Source: a bacterium
Lineage (GTDB): Bacteria > Patescibacteriota > Minisyncoccia > Moranbacterales > UBA1568
Length of the DNA stretch: 64,000 nt
Assembly: GCA_021821305.1 (NCBI GenBank)
Contig: JAKACP010000001.1
Location: 641,526-705,525, forward strand
Direction: 5' to 3'
The notes below the pieces were generated by a model, which was given only the letters and a program-made list of their open reading frames with translations, made no database searches and was not told the DNA's origin. Below, piece after piece: positions 6,932 to 47,277 of this stretch. The first letter of the stretch is position 1, and each line of letters opens with the position of its first letter. Made by a program: the position numbers and the translations under genes.

Positions 6932-6989
6932 GTCATTCATGATGGATGTCACACGGAGGTTTCCGAACGATCGGAAGCCTCTTTTTTTA

Positions 6990-7172
6990 GTAACTGTTCA
7001 AATTCTCATGTCGAGATGGAATTCGAAAATTTCGAGCGAAAATCATGAAAGTTGAGAAAGGCTACTATGGTAACCTGACGAGACTTGAATGGTTTGCAGC
7101 CGAAATTTTCGGATTCCAGCCGACAAGCGGAATCTTTTCTCTTACTTGTGCGGTGAGAATTTGAACAGTTAC
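6990..7172. mobile_element. MITE-like nonautonomous element: perfect 19-bp terminal inverted repeats (GTAACTGTTCAAATTCTCA) flanked by a TTA direct duplication
   Basis: 6990-7008 gtaactgttcaaattctca; 7154-7172 tgagaatttgaacagttac, an exact reverse complement. tta at 6987-6989 and 7173-7175. Inner inverted pair cgaaaatttcg (about 7026) and cgaaattttcg (about 7121). AT-rich, no ORF. Confidence 0.45.
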
Positions 7173-7672
7173 TTAGGCTCTATTTTGACGCAGGAGCGTT
7201 TTGAGTCACCTCAAGGGTACATCCGGCATCGTTTCCATCACGGCGACACGAAACTCCCCCAATCATTTTTCAAAAAACGGGGGAGGCACGGAGAAGGAGA
7301 AAACGGGAAGCCAGAACGTGAGACATTCATCATCCGTGATATCACGTATCGTCGCGCAGGATCCGCGAGAGATGGATCCCAGGGAGCGGGGTGCCGGCAC
7401 ACGGATATCATATCGGTCATCCATACAGAGACCCGATTTCGCGTCCAGATAAAAAAATATTACCGACAGGGGAGGCACGGCCTGATTTTTCAATAATGCT
7501 TTATCCGGAGTGTTTCGAAAGTATACAATGTCGCATAAGTTACATTTGACGACATGTTAACAATAACACTCGCCCGAGACAAGAGCTCCGAAAAAACGAT
7601 ACCGCTTTCTCCGAAACCGTCATTCCCCACCCAGCGGCTCCCGCTTCATTTCCGGGAATGGAAAAAAGGAAT

Positions 7673-7708
7673 AAAAAAAATCGGGAACGAAATATTCTTC
7701 GTTCCCGA
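7673..7708 (-). terminator. Rho-independent terminator of the GGDEF gene
   Basis: Perfect hairpin tcgggaacgaa-atattc-ttcgttcccga (7681-7708). On the minus strand it is followed by U8 (A-run 7673-7680). Confidence 0.6.
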
Positions 7709-9969: not shown

Positions 9970-10296
9970 TCAGAGCATCCCGATCTCAAAAAATCCCTCA
10001 TCGTCATCGCTATCGTCGAAGAGCTCGTACTTCGTCGTGACGGAACCGAAGATATTCCCGAGCCGATCGATGATCTGTCGTTCGTCCATATCGGCGGAAA
10101 AAGTACTGACCCCGCCGACCCTTTCGGAAACCGAAAAACCGCTCTTCTCCGAAAGGACGTAGAGGACGTCTTGCCTCAAGGCATAGAGCAGAGCCGCTCC
10201 CGGCGTCGATACGCAGACTGCGATATCGCATGTCCTTTTCGTTATCTTTTCGAGCGCGTTGCGCTTGTCGTCGGTCACGAGAATGTTCGCGGCCAT
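9970..10296 (-). CDS. hypothetical small acidic protein (108 aa)
   Basis: ATG start; convergent with the nuclease gene and upstream of the C39-like peptidase; acidic C-terminal tail (DDSDDDEGFFEIGML); no family recognised. Confidence 0.35.
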   Translation of the reverse strand: MAANILVTDDKRNALEKITKRTCDIAVCVSTPGAALLYALRQDVLYVLSEKSGFSVSERVGGVSTFSADMDERQIIDRLGNIFGSVTTKYELFDDSDDDEGFFEIGML

Positions 10297-10427
10297 GATA
10301 CTACCCTCCTTTCTCCGAAGATCGGATTTTCCCCTCGCTCGCGTGAAATGTCAAAGAACGGGCGAATCCCCGATAAGCCCATGATAGCACATCCGCTGGC
10401 TTCGTTCCCACATCCGCACTTCGCCGA

Positions 10428-11219: not shown

Positions 11220-11377
11220 AGCGCGTCATTTTAGCATCAAAATGGACTGCTGTCACGGATCCTTGATTTCCCCCTGAATCTGTAATACAATCCTCGATGA
11301 GGATTTTTTCCTTGTTTTTGTTCTTTATTTTCTCCGTTAACTGTTCATTGTTGACTCGTAACTGAAATTGGGGAGTA

Positions 11378-18320: not shown

Positions 18321-20423
18321 TTATACCCGCCGGAACTCGCGCTCCTTCAGCTCATTATACAACAGAATGGAGAGTTTCGGCGATATCATCTCGTTTTCGG
18401 TAAGATCGTCGAGCACGTGCTCCTCGGCCTTGAAGAGGCCGCGACGACCGAACGCCTCGTCGAGCGCCTCGAGGTCCTTGCGGTGCTCCGCGAAGACGGC
18501 ATCGCGTTTTTCAGCCGATCCGCGCTCGAATTCGCGATAAAGCGCGATCACCTTCTCGAAGGTCCGGCCATCGCCGAAGGACTCCGCTCCGCCCTGCGAG
18601 ACGAAAGACGAGAGATGCTTCACGACCTTCCGAGCGATGATATTCTGCGCGCGATACCGCATATACCGCTCTCTGACAGCCTCGCCGGGTTTTACCGGAC
18701 CGAGGAATAATCGTCTGAATATGCCCACGAACTGCTCGAACCAGTCCTCGGGAAACGCTTCGTCGAGCGAGAGAAGCTGTTCCTCGCCGCGCTCCACCCG
18801 CGTGTGCTGGACATGAAGTTTGGCGAGTATGCGTTTGTATACGGGCTCAGTGATCTCCTCATACCGGAACAGCACCCGGAGGAAATGCCGCTCGATGCCG
18901 AGCGCATAGGCGCGGAGCGCCTGTTCCGCGAGTCCCCGATCCGATTCGGAGAACTGCTCGCGGCAGTGCTGCTGGGCCAGGACGTATTCGGCATCATGTT
19001 CCGCCCGGAGCTTGCGATACACCTCCTCGTCGACATAGCGCTTTTCCATGAGACGGTCGAGTTTGGCGATGGCCTGGGCGTGGATGAGCGAGCGCGCCTG
19101 ATGGTACTGCGCTTCCTCGAGGGCATGGAGATTCCCCACGCGGAGCCGCTTCATGACCCCGCTCATCATCGTCGCCTTGATGAAGAGGGTGAAATAGATA
19201 CAACCGATCGTGAGCGCGGCGATGAACTCCTTGACCGAGAACGGGTATTCCCATCCCGGGATCGTCGCTCCGTCCGGGATGAGGAGCACCATCGTGACGG
19301 CGAGCGCGCCGCGCAGACTCCCCCAGGAGAGGAGGTGCTGCCAGGATTTCGGGATCTCGTCTTCCCCGGAAAAGCGGTTGAGAAGGGCGACGACCGGATA
19401 GATCGAGACGGCCCGGGCGGCCGCCACGACGACGATGACGATCGCGATCGGCAATACGAACTGAGCGAAATCGATGGAAAGCCCGGCGAAGAGGAGCCCC
19501 ATGAGGATGAATACGAGGGAATTCGCCACGAAGGCGAAATACCCCCAGAACTTCTCCATGTACTCCTCGACCCGCGGCGAGATCTTCGCTCGGCCATAGT
19601 TTCCGATGACCATGGCCGCCACCACGGTCGCGATGATGGACGAGAGTTTCGCCTCATGGCCGAAGATGACCAGATGCTCCGATACGACCTCCGAGAGGAG
19701 GAACGTGAAGTGCGCCGCGAGCATGGTGAGCGTGATCTCCACGTGCTCGTTGTCCTTGACCAGTCCGATGAGTTTCGAAAAGAAGATTCCCATGAGGAGA
19801 CCGAACATCACGCCGCCCGCCAGCATGAACGAAAACAGGAAGACGCCCTCCCCGACCGACTCCCAACCGGAAAATCCGGCGAGGAAGATCTCGAGCGCCA
19901 CGAGAAAGAGCGCGAACGATGTCCCGTCGTTGAAGAGGCTCTCCCCCTCGAACAGGAGCGAGAGTCTCCGCGGGGCGCCGAATTCCTTGAAAAGCGCGAG
20001 CACCGCGACCGGATCCGTCGCGGAGATGAGCGCGCCGAAGAGGAGCGCGACGATGAACGGCACGTCGAAGCCGATGAGCTGGAAACCGAAGTAGACGCCG
20101 ACCGCCACGACCGCGGTCGAGATGAGCAGGCTCGCCACCGACAGCCATCCGATCGAGCGGACATTCTCCGCGAATTCCCGGACGTTCATGTTGTACGCGG
20201 ACTCGAAGATGAGAATCGGGAGGAACACGAAGAACAGGAGTTCGGGCGTGAGCTCGAAGCTTCGGATGAACGAAAGCGCCGGGATGCTCGTGAGCGGGAC
20301 GAGAAGCGACCCGGCGAGGACGAGGAGCACCGTATAGGGCACGCGGATTTTCCGCGAGACAGCGAAGATACCGACCGAAATGAGAACGAGCGCGAAGAAC
20401 GCGAGAAAGACTTCGATGTGCAT
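18321..20423 (-). CDS. Na+/H+ antiporter, CPA1 (NhaP-type) with C-terminal cytoplasmic regulatory domain
   Basis: 12-13 TM helices with an ATDPVAVLALF motif and a long helical C-terminal tail. ATG at 20423 (MHIEVFL...). Confidence 0.8.
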   Translation of the reverse strand: MHIEVFLAFFALVLISVGIFAVSRKIRVPYTVLLVLAGSLLVPLTSIPALSFIRSFELTPELLFFVFLPILIFESAYNMNVREFAENVRSIGWLSVASLLISTAVVAVGVYFGFQLIGFDVPFIVALLFGALISATDPVAVLALFKEFGAPRRLSLLFEGESLFNDGTSFALFLVALEIFLAGFSGWESVGEGVFLFSFMLAGGVMFGLLMGIFFSKLIGLVKDNEHVEITLTMLAAHFTFLLSEVVSEHLVIFGHEAKLSSIIATVVAAMVIGNYGRAKISPRVEEYMEKFWGYFAFVANSLVFILMGLLFAGLSIDFAQFVLPIAIVIVVVAAARAVSIYPVVALLNRFSGEDEIPKSWQHLLSWGSLRGALAVTMVLLIPDGATIPGWEYPFSVKEFIAALTIGCIYFTLFIKATMMSGVMKRLRVGNLHALEEAQYHQARSLIHAQAIAKLDRLMEKRYVDEEVYRKLRAEHDAEYVLAQQHCREQFSESDRGLAEQALRAYALGIERHFLRVLFRYEEITEPVYKRILAKLHVQHTRVERGEEQLLSLDEAFPEDWFEQFVGIFRRLFLGPVKPGEAVRERYMRYRAQNIIARKVVKHLSSFVSQGGAESFGDGRTFEKVIALYREFERGSAEKRDAVFAEHRKDLEALDEAFGRRGLFKAEEHVLDDLTENEMISPKLSILLYNELKEREFRRV

Positions 20424-20542
20424 AAGAAAAACAGAAATACCGCGTCCCCCCGTATGGGTCCGGATTCTCGTATCATATGTGGATAAACGCCGGGTGCCCG
20501 GCAAAACATCGTAATCCTACTCCCGGCGTACATGCCTGTCAA

Positions 20543-20568
20543 CAAAAAACCCCGATCGAAATCGGGGT
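20543..20568 (-). terminator. Rho-independent terminator after rplL
   Basis: ccccgat-cgaaa-atcgggg perfect stem with an A6 run at 20544-20549, which gives U6 after the hairpin on the minus strand. Confidence 0.6.
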
Positions 20569-20590
20569 TTTCCGGACAGGATGTCCTGGC

Positions 20591-21004
<414 letters not shown>

Positions 21005-21052
21005 AACTTTACGTTAATTGCCTGATTATTATATCGAACACACCGATGGAAA

Positions 21053-21574
21053 CTACGCCTTCTTCTCGGCCACCGCGGAAAGCACCCGCACCAGACCGGA
21101 GAGATTCCCCGACAACGTCCGGACGAATCCGGCGATCGGCGCCTGGAGCGTCCCGGCGAGGGTACCGCGGAGCTCGTCCTTCGACGGAAGCTTCGCGAGC
21201 GCCTTCACCTCGGCCGCCGACAACGCCTTGCCTTCGAGCGCCCCGCCGACGATCGAGAGCTTCATGTCCTTGTTCGCCTTCACGTAATCCGCGATCGCCT
21301 TGGCCGCGGAGACCTCGTCGGTCGAGAACGCGACACCTACCTGTCCCTCGAGCTTCCGGGCATCGACCGCGATGCCGGCATCGGAGAGCGCGATGTTGAG
21401 GATGGTCTTCTTGAGGATCTGGAACCGCGAACCGCTCTTGCGGAGCTCGGCCCTGATCTCGGAAAGCTGCTTCACGGTCACGCCCTTGTAATCCGAGAAC
21501 ACCAGCGCCTTGGCTTCCTTGGCGCTCTCCGTGACCTGCTTGAGAAGCGATTCCTTTTCTGCTCGTTTCATCAT
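21053..21574 (-). CDS. rplJ: 50S ribosomal protein L10
   Basis: MMKRAEKESLLKQVTESAKEAKALVFSDYKGVTVKQLSEIRAELRKSG...; ATG-ATG at 21569-21574. Confidence 0.9.
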   Translation of the reverse strand: MMKRAEKESLLKQVTESAKEAKALVFSDYKGVTVKQLSEIRAELRKSGSRFQILKKTILNIALSDAGIAVDARKLEGQVGVAFSTDEVSAAKAIADYVKANKDMKLSIVGGALEGKALSAAEVKALAKLPSKDELRGTLAGTLQAPIAGFVRTLSGNLSGLVRVLSAVAEKKA

Positions 21575-21738
21575 ATGTTTCCGTACAAACAAAAAACTGC
21601 GGTTTCCCGCAGACAAAAGGAAGTCGGTCGACCTCCCGTTCCCTCGTGAGGACTTCCCTCCGATTCCTCTCGGAGCGCCTCATGTCTGCGGAAACGATAC
21701 TATGGGACTATTGTAAAATCCTTTCCGGCATCTGTCAA
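21575..21738 (-). promoter_or_regulatory. rplJ leader with an intrinsic terminator/attenuator hairpin about 15 nt upstream of the start codon (candidate L10-L12 autoregulatory leader)
   Basis: Hairpin ctgcgg-tttc-ccgcag at 21597-21612, followed on the minus strand by uuuuuu (21591-21596) and then the rplJ ATG. No room for a separate promoter, so readthrough is implied. Confidence 0.35.
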
Positions 21739-22161
21739 CTATGCCGCCTTCTCCTCGACCGGAGCTTCCGCGGGGACTTCCGCCGCGACCGTCTCCGCAA
21801 GAGCCTCTTCTTTCGCTTCCTCGGCGGGCGCTTCGGCGACAGGAGCCTCGGCAACCGGAGCTTCGGCTTCCGGAGCCGGCTCTTCCTTCGCCTTCGGCTT
21901 CTCCATCTTGATCGCGCGCTTCGCGTCCGTCAGGACCCCTTCTTTCACGAGAAGGTTGTGCACCGAGTCGGAGGGCTGTGCACCGAGACCGATCCAGTGA
22001 AGGATGCGCTCCTTCTTGAGCACGATCTGCTTCATGTGCGGCTCGTAAGAGCCGAGCATCTCGACGTGCTTGCGGCCCGGGGCGCGCCCCTTTTCCTGGA
22101 GCACGATGCGGAACGCGGCCTGGTTCTTTTTCCCGATGCGGTTGAATCGAATTGCGAGCAT
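21739..22161 (-). CDS. rpsP: 30S ribosomal protein S16 with Ala/Glu/Pro-rich C-terminal extension
   Basis: MLAIRFNRIGKKNQAAFRIVLQEKGRAPGRKHVEMLGSYEP matches S16. C-terminal AEAPV repeats. Confidence 0.85.
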   Translation of the reverse strand: MLAIRFNRIGKKNQAAFRIVLQEKGRAPGRKHVEMLGSYEPHMKQIVLKKERILHWIGLGAQPSDSVHNLLVKEGVLTDAKRAIKMEKPKAKEEPAPEAEAPVAEAPVAEAPAEEAKEEALAETVAAEVPAEAPVEEKAA

Positions 22162-41443: not shown

Positions 41444-41475
41444 ACTGTTCCGAATCGATATCGGTTTTTAAGAGT

Positions 41476-41520
41476 CTGTTCAATATTTCCCCTTATGTAT
41501 GCGGTGAGATATTGAACAGG
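41476..41520. repeat. inverted repeat/hairpin related to the MITE terminal repeats (ctgttcaatatttcccc ... ggtgagatattgaacag)
   Basis: Arms 41476-41492 and 41503-41520 with a 10-nt loop. The right arm gcggtgagatattgaacag is close to MITE right TIR gcggtgagaatttgaacag. Confidence 0.45.
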
Positions 41521-41579
41521 TTTTCTAAGCGTTTGAAAACGAGGTGCGGGCGCGCCGGGAGAGGGAGTCATTCGGAGCG

Positions 41580-42131
41580 TCAGATACAGACGATCTCGGC
41601 GTCGAACCGCCGGTTACGGGCGTCCTTTATCGTGAGTTTGATCGCGAGCTTCTCCCCGCCTTCCGAACAGAGGAAGTCACGGTTGAGACCGAGGTCGCTC
41701 GCGAGCTTCTGCGCGTCGAGTTCGACGGGGTTGGGGATGATGAGGTAGTCGGAGCTCGCCAGAAGCCCCCTGATGCGTCCGATGATGTCGTGCGGAGGGG
41801 TCATGGTCGTGACGAAGAAGTCCTTGACGCCCATCGCCCGCGCGCGTGTCTCATCCTCCTGCCGCCCGAGATGGGACAGGAACATGACGGGAACGCTCAT
41901 GGTATTGATATTCTTCTGCAGCGCTTCGGCGAGCATGAACCCGTCCATGCGGGGCATGATGATACCCGAAACGACGAGGTCCGGAACCGTCTGATTCACC
42001 TTTTCGAGCCCCTCGAGCCCATCACCCGCCTCGCGCACATCGAAACCGGCGGTACGGAGCAGATCGGCATAGAGAGTCCGTGTGTCCTCGTCGTCGTCGA
42101 CGAGCACGATGCTATACTGTGTTTTTTCCAT
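41580..42131 (-). CDS. atypical response-regulator receiver (REC) protein lacking the phospho-acceptor Asp, with a short C-terminal domain
   Basis: IVLVDDDEDTR acidic pocket, conserved S/T (FLSHLG) and K (MGVKDFF). Acceptor position reads PDLVVSGIIMP, G instead of D. ATG at 42131. Confidence 0.7.
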   Translation of the reverse strand: MEKTQYSIVLVDDDEDTRTLYADLLRTAGFDVREAGDGLEGLEKVNQTVPDLVVSGIIMPRMDGFMLAEALQKNINTMSVPVMFLSHLGRQEDETRARAMGVKDFFVTTMTPPHDIIGRIRGLLASSDYLIIPNPVELDAQKLASDLGLNRDFLCSEGGEKLAIKLTIKDARNRRFDAEIVCI

Positions 42132-42197
42132 AAGAAACGTTAGATTCGCCTTCCTCCGGATTATACGACAAATCGGCCCGTCCGCCAAACCGGACGG

Positions 42198-43271
42198 CTA
42201 TCGCTTTCCCGCCTTTCCGAGACGCTCGATGAGGCTCCGTTCCTCGGAGGAAAGCTTCTTCGGGACCGCCACCTTGACCGTGACCAGGTGGTCCCCGCTC
42301 CCCCAGCCGCGGAAATTCCTGAGTCCCTTACCCTTGATTCGGAACACTTCGCCCGGCTGGGTTCCGGCCGGGATCTTCATGCGGACCGGGCCATGCACCG
42401 TCTCGACGGAGATCGTGTCGCCGAGGGCCGCCTGCGCGAAACTGATGTCGACCGAGGAGAATATGTTGTCGCCGCGCCGCTCGAACGACTTGTGCGGCTT
42501 CACGTGCACCGTGACGAAGAGGTCTCCCGAAGGCATGCCGTGCCCGCCCGCCGCGCCCTTACCGGCAAGCGAGATGGTCTGGCCGTTCTCGATACCCTGC
42601 GGAATGTCGAACGAGATCTCCTCCTCGCCGACGGTCTTTCCGGCCCCTTTGCAGGCGGTGCATTCCTTGGCGTACCACTTCCCTTTTCCGGAACACTTCG
42701 GACACACGGCGGTCTGGGAGAACGTACCGAGAAAGCTCCGGACCGTCTTGGTGACCCGTCCGGATCCGCCGCAGGTCGGACAGGTTTCCTCCTTGGAACC
42801 GGGCTCGCCGCCCGTCCCCTGACATGCGGCACAGGTGATCGGCTTGCGGATCCGTATCGTCTTGCGCACTCCCGATACCATCTCGTCGAAGGATATCTCG
42901 ATGTCGGTTTCGATATCCATTCCCGCTTTCGGTCCGCGCGCACCGGCGGAAAATCCGCCGCCACCTCCGAAAAGATCGGAGAAAATGTCCTCGAATCCGT
43001 TCCCGCCGAACTGAAAATCATTGAAATCGAAACCGCCGAAGCCCTGCGCTCCGCCGGCCCCGTTCGGACCGGTACCGAACTGGTCGTATCGCCGGCGCTT
43101 CTCCGGGTCGGACAGCGTGCCGTAGGCCTCGTTGATCTCCTTGAACTTCGCCTCATCCCCGTGTTTCTTGTCCGGGTGGTGCTGATGGGCGAGCTTGCGG
43201 AACGCCTTCTTGATATCGTCCTGCGAGGCGTCCTTCGCCACCCCGAGGATCTCGTAATAATCTTTCGCCAT
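42198..43271 (-). CDS. dnaJ: molecular chaperone DnaJ
   Basis: J domain with HPD (HQHHPDKK), G/F-rich linker, four CxxCxGxG zinc-finger repeats. Confidence 0.9.
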
Positions 43272-46928: not shown

Positions 46929-47093
46929 CAGAGCCTGTTAAAAAAGTCCGTATTCTGCTGCAATACGAGAATTTCGGCTGCAAAATCCGGATATCTCGTC
47001 GGGTTACTCTCCGGGTAGCCCTTCTCCATCTCCGGATTTTTCGCTCGGAATTCTCGTATTTCGCGACGAAAGTGACTTTCTCAACAGGCTCTC
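46929..47093. repeat. long imperfect palindromic AT-rich element (about 165 bp) in the trxA upstream region, with nested arms
   Basis: Outer arms agagcctgttaaaaaagt (46929-46947) and actttctcaacaggctct (47075-47093). Inner arms tacgagaatttcg (46964-46976) and cggaattctcgta (47047-47059). Central ccggat-containing core. Confidence 0.4.
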
Positions 47094-47277
47094 ACGGACA
47101 TCGGAACGTTTCTTGAAAAATTATATCCCAATCATACCCCATCGGTACGGGTTCGTAAAGTTCGCGCCATCCCTCGGAAGTATCCGAAAAATACCGGGTA
47201 TCAGGAAAAAGAAAGACCGCTCTCAGGCGGCCTTTCCGCCGTATGGACCTGAGACTTTACGGAGTTGACGGATGTAC

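Follow-up and report, generated by a model that had tools for sequence, protein, structure and literature searches.

REPINs are non-coding intergenic hairpin doublets that show compensatory changes, persist for long periods in a lineage, are associated with RAYT and make no target duplication. For two other kinds of dispersed hairpin repeat that are imperfect palindromes over their whole length, ERIC/IRU and the Rickettsia palindromic elements, we know of no clear target duplications or defined junctions with terminal inverted repeats (TIRs) and a target-site duplication. A 3-nt cut at TWA is also a signature of the IS5-family subgroups related to PIF/Harbinger, and a plain DNA transposon moved by DDE-type cut-and-paste needs neither a strand-specific fold nor a conserved internal loop. 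Harbinger elements, which are related to IS5, make 3-bp duplications (PMC12730594). MITEs range in size from ~50 to 800 bp (PMC11602168); they are AT-rich, give stable stem-loop transcripts and carry promoters (PMC10969869). Correia elements have ~26-bp TIRs with promoter elements in their ends, and in their paired-TIR transcripts the TIR stems are cut by RNase III; hairpin repeats of the ERIC/IRU and Rickettsia kind can change mRNA stability (PMC10969869). The main text of a survey of MITEs in 183,232 prokaryotic genomes is silent on the CPR/Patescibacteria phyla (PMC11602168). In the searchable literature we found no description of the family reported here, or of MITEs in CPR bacteria, and the element family is previously undescribed.

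The locus lies in a 64-kb stretch of DNA that was analysed at its full length of 64,000 nucleotides (the window; Table 1). The element is 183–185 bp long and contains no ORF, and nearly all of its 185 nt are self-complementary. The TIR 19-mer GTAACTGTTCAAATTCTCA occurs with 0 mismatches on the plus strand at the left end and on the minus strand at the right end, and nowhere else in the 64-kb window at ≤3 mismatches (shuffles expect 0.00 matches). The perfect 19-bp TIRs of the preliminary description are exact, and the inverted repeat is really 20 nt long (6989–7008/7154–7173, 100% complementary). The left TIR sequence is identical in copies of at least four different organisms; the right TIR holds an outward-facing TTGAAC (7162–7167), a −35-like hexamer that each end of the element carries and that can complete a promoter. 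The nested inverted pair, the AT-richness, the lack of an ORF and the convergent gap of the same description were all seen as well: cgaaaatttcg and cgaaattttcg lie at 7024–7034 and 7103–7113 within a 49-nt imperfect inner palindrome, the GC content is 41% (vs 53–66% in the window), and the element stands between convergent genes, a 74-aa ORF upstream and a minus-strand GGDEF gene downstream. Copy 1, as we call this element, begins right after the terminator of the 74-aa gene, at the end of its T-tract; its plus orientation is that of the strand with the best fold, which carries the G·U pairs.

Table 1 Positions in the window of the element, its parts, its other copies and the empty allele.
Feature	Position	Strand	Remarks
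Full element (copy 1)	6989..7173	+	model R1, 191 bits, E 5e-45
Left TTA of the target-site duplication	6987..6989	.	end of the upstream terminator's T-tract
Right TTA of the target-site duplication	7173..7175	.	
Intrinsic terminator of the upstream 74-aa gene	6955..6988	+	hairpin 6955-6982 plus T-tract
Left TIR, GTAACTGTTCAAATTCTCA	6990..7008	.	5' arm of helix 1 (6989-7009)
Right TIR	7154..7172	.	3' arm of helix 1 (7153-7173)
Helix 2, 5' arm	7010..7033	+	pairs with 7102-7124
Helix 2, 3' arm	7102..7124	+	
Conserved internal loop and helix 3, 5' side	7034..7043	+	GA-GCGAA-AAT
Conserved helix 3 and internal loop, 3' side	7093..7101	+	TTTGC-AGCC
Apical hairpin domain, then conserved motif	7050..7085	+	motif GACRAG
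Asymmetric 3' bulge	7125..7152	+	AAGCGG ... variable U-rich ... GCG
Copy 2, diverged full copy in the trxA 5' untranslated region	46930..47092	-	82 bits, E 3e-18
Copy 3, 54-nt mini-derivative	41471..41524	+	22.6 bits, E 0.0015
Empty allele of the polymorphic site, dnaJ stop to response-regulator start	42131..42200	-	

We compared copy 1 with a related contig (L124), in which this locus lacks the element and has one TTA only. The PD-(D/E)XK neighbour is 93% identical, the gene order is the same, and the terminator of the 74-aa gene is also conserved; the empty site reads ...GCCTCTTTTTTTA|TGCCTCCTATTTTCACGC... (also given as ...GCCTCTTTTTTTA|TGCCTCCTATTTTCACGCAAGAGCGTTTTGA...), with the downstream sequence directly after the terminator. 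Once GTAAC...GTTAC and one TTA are removed, the window is collinear with L124 across the junction. An empty locus with a single TTA identifies copy 1 as a true insertion with a 3-bp duplication, as the TTA on both sides had been read in the preliminary description. A second filled/empty pair was obtained from L002 (...GAATAC TAA [element TAA] CACAT ATG) and L123 (...GAATAC TAA CCATC ATG), where a polyprenyl synthase gene with a TAA stop is followed by the uppS ATG and the insertion lies exactly at the stop; tblastn among the loci compared gave no further empty sites. These results clearly indicate that the element is a real insertion of a non-coding MITE that duplicated its TTA target.

The flanks of ten copies all have the form T-N-A/T-N-A, with an identical middle base in seven; perfect flanking repeats are present in five of the ten, and every one of these is TTA or TAA. 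In three copies the duplicated triplet is a stop codon (rpsU in L014, polyprenyl synthase in L002 and ABC-F in L007b), and the target of copy 1 is the last TTA of the terminator T-tract. Since duplication at a stop codon regenerates the stop, the gene survives, and stop-regenerating insertion suits a compact genome. The earlier wording "recently mobilised" is not supported for copy 1: it is fixed across the four sampled strains, with the same model score in L039–L041, and its closest relatives share only 76–80% identity.

Between the element and the GGDEF terminator, ~500 nt of the window (7175–7679) hold no called gene and have no Rfam match. This gene-free stretch 3' of the element contains a hairpin, CTCCCCC-N18-GGGGGAG (7252–7288), that is conserved in L124, and the motifs ATTTTTCAAAAA and ACGGGGGAGGCACGG recur in it with their order swapped, at 7265–7291 and 7466–7496.

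Strain polymorphism was observed at the junction of dnaJ and a response-regulator gene. The site is filled by a 184-nt copy in L038 and in L025+L037, and is empty in the window, L035 and L036, where only 66 nt separate the two genes. Over 7.6 kb, L025 and the window share 99.24% identity, and L025 then diverges, exactly after the dnaJ stop, into the element. The allele lengths fit a 3-bp duplication, and 4–5 bases beside the element differ between the alleles, with a substitution cluster at window 42190–42200 vs L038 755–770 and 945–960 (GCCGTCC vs ATTCTCA/TCC). The difference may have arisen by gain, by loss that left a scar or by import of an allele, and the site is not a clean insertion. 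Two further differences were seen at this site: dnaJ ends in TAG in one allele and in TAA in the other, and the empty allele has a perfect hairpin, CCGTCCG...CGGACGG, which the filled allele lacks. The end of L025 (7656–7752) and the start of L037 (1–114), both from the same sample's Logan assembly, lie inside the same copy, which indicates that the repeat breaks short-read assemblies.

We then searched for the exact TIR in one genome per species and in metagenome records (185,579 genomes and 241 million records). In the genome scan, one match was a homologous element of 154 nt (L002, a Candidatus Moraniibacteriota MAG), and the three remaining matches were single and consistent with chance; the metagenome scan returned paired-TIR elements on L007, L008, L014 and L016. 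Blastn then added two sequences in the window, a diverged second copy (near 47000) and a short relative (near 41500), as well as another copy on L007. A covariance model, R1, built from seven full copies detected the three copies listed in Table 1 and nothing else in the window, and it matched five other Moranbacteria contigs; there are thus three copies within 64 kb, and a fourth site is filled in other strains. Counting copies, as proposed in the preliminary description, therefore gave two more in the window and seven full ones on other Moranbacteria contigs or strains (two on L007, and one each on L008, L014, L016, L002 and L038). These copies, the empty site, the second filled/empty pair and the strain polymorphism support its reading of the element as a MITE.

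Copy 2 has a rewritten terminal stem (AGAGCCTGTTGAGAAAGTC) in which pairing is kept, and the terminal stem of L007b is likewise rewritten and still paired. Copy 3, first noticed as a TIR variant at 41476–41520, is a real 54-nt mini-copy that consists of the terminal stem and the 3' bulge only; it lies between the recJ start and the end of a response-regulator gene, and every strain has it. Inside the element, the copies are pairwise 57–83% identical, except for one pair at 92%, and those within the window species are no closer to one another than to copies elsewhere. The best matches of LepA, UppS and PD-(D/E)XK are named Moranbacteria or Moraniibacteriota, which makes the organism a Moranbacterium. 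Among viral contigs, no family members were found by three pattern scans and a model search over 78 loci, the model giving no match in 689 kb of unrelated viral DNA, and blastn against plasmids and phages gave chance matches only. Relatives at 84–90% LepA identity, and others, have no copy in ~180 kb, so the family is patchy. Single TIR matches on L001, L003–L006, L009–L013, L015 and L017–L024 were set aside as chance or coding, with no model match. So far, the family has been seen only in Candidatus Moranbacteria/Moraniibacteriota (Patescibacteria/CPR).

The RNA fold of copy 1 has a minimum free energy of −82.8 kcal/mol on the plus strand (z −10) vs −71.1 kcal/mol on the minus strand, and the same (sense) strand folds better in all ten copies. 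The terminal stem is an uninterrupted 25 bp. Helix 2 shows compensatory changes in 15 of its 22 pairs across copies, and the block formed by the internal loop and helix 3, which contains an invariant G·U pair, is the best conserved of the family (mean pairwise identity 0.87 vs 0.62 in helix 2). The apical domain has covarying pairs, e.g., GGCUAC/GUAACC vs GGAAUAUC/GAUAUUCC, and is deleted in the L002 copy. The asymmetric 3' bulge, which is kept in the mini-copy and lost in copy 2, makes the element polar.

Structure counts were taken from a model-fitted alignment of nine related copies, on the favoured strand as chosen after seeing the folds. Of the alignment cells, 95.2% form standard pairs, and both partners have changed in 33 of 65 pairs; none of 500 shuffles reached any of the pairing measures, and sliding the partners by 1–3 columns lowered pairing to 31–49%. 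RNAalifold on a plain MAFFT alignment agrees, with 29 of 64 pairs compensatory. On one strand, G·U accounts for 43 cells in 20 columns vs 5 cells in 5 columns for A·C; a two-sided binomial test of 20 vs 5 columns gives ~0.004, for a strand that was picked after seeing the folds. The orientation of the copies to their flanking genes is mixed (~6 sense, 3 antisense, 1 unclear), so read-through transcription cannot expose the favoured strand at every copy. From the retained pairing, the G·U excess and the conserved loop, we infer that the hairpin has been selected as a single strand, and comparison of the copies thus points to selection on a single-stranded form of the element.

We also compared the element with known RNA and promoter classes. 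A search of the whole window with Rfam 15 at the gathering score returned only tRNA-Gln, and two local scans at permissive E-values, one of them up to E 10 on both strands, gave nothing relevant to the element. A 6S RNA was rejected, as the unpaired region is one-sided and the element multi-copy. A hammerhead was likewise rejected: copy 1 has CUGACGA and GAAA, but the U is not conserved (mostly CCGACGA), and Rfam is silent. A promoter scan gave no sigma-70 promoter of the element's own; GACA...TAYATA in the 3' bulge resembles a promoter by eye, with spacing and hexamers that are inconsistent between copies, and was discarded. An IHF-like site is found in copy 1 only.

The best explanation of these data is, with high probability, a non-autonomous MITE with a TWA duplication, IS5/Harbinger-like, that carries a selected hairpin. 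Four other explanations were weighed against it. The element could be a structured RNA gene that is mobile, with the hairpin RNA as its functional product (e.g., a regulator, a protein sponge or an RNA for its own propagation), and the TIRs and the target duplication would serve only to spread that gene. The strong covariation and the polar fold speak for this, as do the position of the best-conserved block, which is an internal loop with an invariant G·U and not the TIR, and the finding that copies in one genome are no closer mutually than to those of other species; furthermore, constraint from transposase binding alone would not preserve pairing in the rewritten stems of copy 2 and L007b. 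The genomic setting fits such a gene poorly, however: the element has no conserved promoter or terminator at its flanks, copy 1 follows immediately on the terminator of another gene, and a third of the copies lie antisense to the genes beside them. With no Rfam match, with the apical domain or the 3' bulge missing from retained copies (L002, copy 2 and the mini-copy) and with close relatives lacking the family altogether, we regard an RNA gene as possible but doubtful. The structured RNA that the preliminary description had offered as its fallback does not make a clean alternative, since the element combines mobility with selection for a strand-specific fold. The compensatory changes could instead be a by-product of arm-to-arm gene conversion or hairpin-templated repair, without structural selection. 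Concerted evolution of inverted repeats is a known phenomenon, and the element is palindromic over almost its whole length; nevertheless, this explanation leaves the excess of G·U columns over A·C columns (20:5), the conserved asymmetric bulge and the conserved non-complementary loop unaccounted for, and we consider it improbable.

Movement as single-stranded DNA by a hairpin-recognising HUH/Y1 transposase (RAYT/TnpA), as in REPINs or IS200/IS605, would suit the strand-specific conservation of the hairpin with its tolerance of G·T, an orientation that is independent of transcription, and the fact that no DDE transposase was found. To our knowledge, HUH elements (IS200/IS605, RAYT) make no target duplication, whereas two empty/filled pairs show clean 3-bp duplications here; the ends are true TIRs and not separate subterminal hairpins or short REP units, and no Y1 transposase occurs in any fetched locus, which together make such a mobiliser highly improbable. 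In favour of a fixed, immobile hairpin that acts as a cis-regulatory element or terminator of the local genes are the very stable fold and the position of copy 1 in a convergent gap beside a terminator. No U-tract follows the hairpin, however, and the element recurs elsewhere, at loci that are unrelated and in further species; the empty orthologous sites and dispersed copies refute this reading, for which we see next to no chance.

For the MITE itself, the mobiliser was sought in several ways. Pfam tables, covering about two thirds of the 64 kb, and a scan of the unannotated ORFs of the rest gave no transposase, Y1/HUH enzyme or reverse transcriptase, in line with the earlier observation that the window lacks a transposase. 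None is listed in the fetched flanks of other copies or of relatives, which are small parts of each genome. The search for an autonomous partner that the preliminary description had suggested gave none in these loci or in the exact-TIR scans, which returned short elements or single chance matches only, with no TIR pair 1–2 kb apart; by design, such scans miss a partner with diverged TIRs. Mobilisation of the IS5/PIF-Harbinger kind is suggested by the TWA duplication. A DDE-type transposase, supplied in trans, would bind the 20-bp TIRs and make a 3-nt staggered cut at T-W-A. The element would be read through from neighbouring genes, and this transcript is the likeliest single-stranded form to be under selection, its uninterrupted 25-bp stem being a potential RNase III substrate. 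The other candidate would be a single-stranded DNA state during mobilisation; given the mixed orientation and the conserved loop, a role at the level of the DNA or of the element is possible. An RNase III gene is present in the window.

The conserved hairpin and loop point to constraint beyond transposase binding. We tentatively propose, as a possibility that we rate well short of probable, that the element is a mobile, polar, structured module in which the single-strand fold and the GA/GCGAA...UUUGC/AGCC loop are functional, either as a host or element RNA or as a recognition structure. Such a module may act as RNA, e.g., by taking a signal for protein binding or processing to new genes, or it may serve in single-stranded form as the signal for a mobilising enzyme in CPR.

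We investigated the consequences of insertion for neighbouring genes at trxA; such effects on the host depend on the position of the copy. Copy 2 lies 24 nt before the trxA ATG, and a promoter-like TTTACG-17-TATGAT lies upstream of it at 47159–47131, so the trxA mRNA should carry a 163-nt hairpin. On L016 (7369–7432), the TTGAAC of the right TIR stands exactly 17 nt from a TATAAT before trxA; judging from this spacing, the element may supply the −35 and give a hybrid promoter for trxA, and copies of the family could in this manner rewire promoters. Orthology of the two trxA-upstream copies was rejected, as one copy has the promoter −10 upstream of it and the other has it downstream; the closer relatives L027 and L029 have no copy upstream of trxA, and the copies in the window and L016 are independent insertions. 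Upstream of trxA, L029 (13990–14110) and L027 (14085–14180) contain other GC-rich palindromes, e.g., TCATCCCGGCCTCCGAGCCGGGAT ... GGATCCCGGGTCAAGCCCGGGATGGCA, which may belong to a different repeat family. L027 also carries, a few kb from the trxA cluster, a diversity-generating retroelement (19175–21812; bAvd and a reverse transcriptase fragment) that is absent from the matching part of the window.

The sequence upstream of tRNA-Gln, which had been taken for another variant of the TIR, was rejected as a family copy. It shares a 10-nt identity with the TIR, TAACTGTTCA at 11338–11347 (0.03 expected by chance, so rarer than chance), with no partner arm and no model match, and in a relative the corresponding position before tRNA-Gln has a sequence that is similar but not identical. 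Just upstream of the tRNA (11337–11364), the TIR-like TTAACTGTTCA is followed 10 nt further on by GTAACTG, again with no model match. In L124, the 5' half of the tRNA is partly duplicated in the region upstream of tRNA-Gln (10180–10330; TTGGGGAGTAGCC ... CAAGCGGTAAGGCAGG); a 31-nt GC-rich insert splits the duplicate, and the intact tRNA comes after it.

In the small, gene-dense genomes of CPR/Patescibacteria, this family shows how a transposon can persist, namely by insertion at TAA/TTA, in terminator T-tracts or at stop codons, which the 3-bp duplication restores. The family is, in addition, a compact case of a DNA transposon that keeps a strand-specific, covarying hairpin with a conserved loop over long divergence.

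Among described systems, the element shows, apart from an identified parent, the features by which prokaryotic MITEs are recognised: their size, the lack of coding capacity, TIRs of at least 10–15 bp, a filled/empty duplication, dispersed copies (three in 64 kb) and strain polymorphism, the latter at a dnaJ junction with extra substitutions. With Tourist-type MITEs (PIF/Harbinger, IS5) it shares small size, AT-richness, non-coding sequence, TIRs, a 3-bp TTA/TAA duplication and intergenic location; it differs from them in having no identified cognate transposase or sequence-related IS, in its CPR host and in that the whole element is a covarying hairpin. Like Correia elements (CREE, Neisseria), it belongs to the 100–200-bp class, lies next to genes and has no known active transposase, and the TTGAAC in its TIR, its 25-bp terminal stem and the RNase III gene in the window may be further parallels. 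Correia elements, however, duplicate TA and occur in hundreds of near-identical copies, whereas this family duplicates TWA and has few, deeply diverged copies (60–80% identity) with compensatory changes. With ERIC/IRU and the Rickettsia palindromic elements it has in common that they are dispersed intergenic repeats of ~120–190 nt with long RNA hairpins, and it differs from these in that its insertion junctions have been demonstrated. With REPINs it shares a non-coding, intergenic hairpin with compensatory change and long persistence in a lineage, and differs in its 3-bp duplication and in the lack of a RAYT in the fetched loci. Derivation from IS200/IS605 was rejected on account of the true TIRs and duplications and of 5' flanks that share only T-N-A, with no fixed tetranucleotide. 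An integron attC site (RYYYAAC ... GTTRRRY) was rejected as well, since the ends TAGTAAC ... GTTACTT fit only TAAC/GTTA and the copies stand singly among housekeeping genes, not in cassette arrays. By this comparison, the closest systems in behaviour are Tourist-type MITEs for the duplication, and Correia and ERIC elements for hairpin transcripts, promoter parts and the lack of a known transposase.
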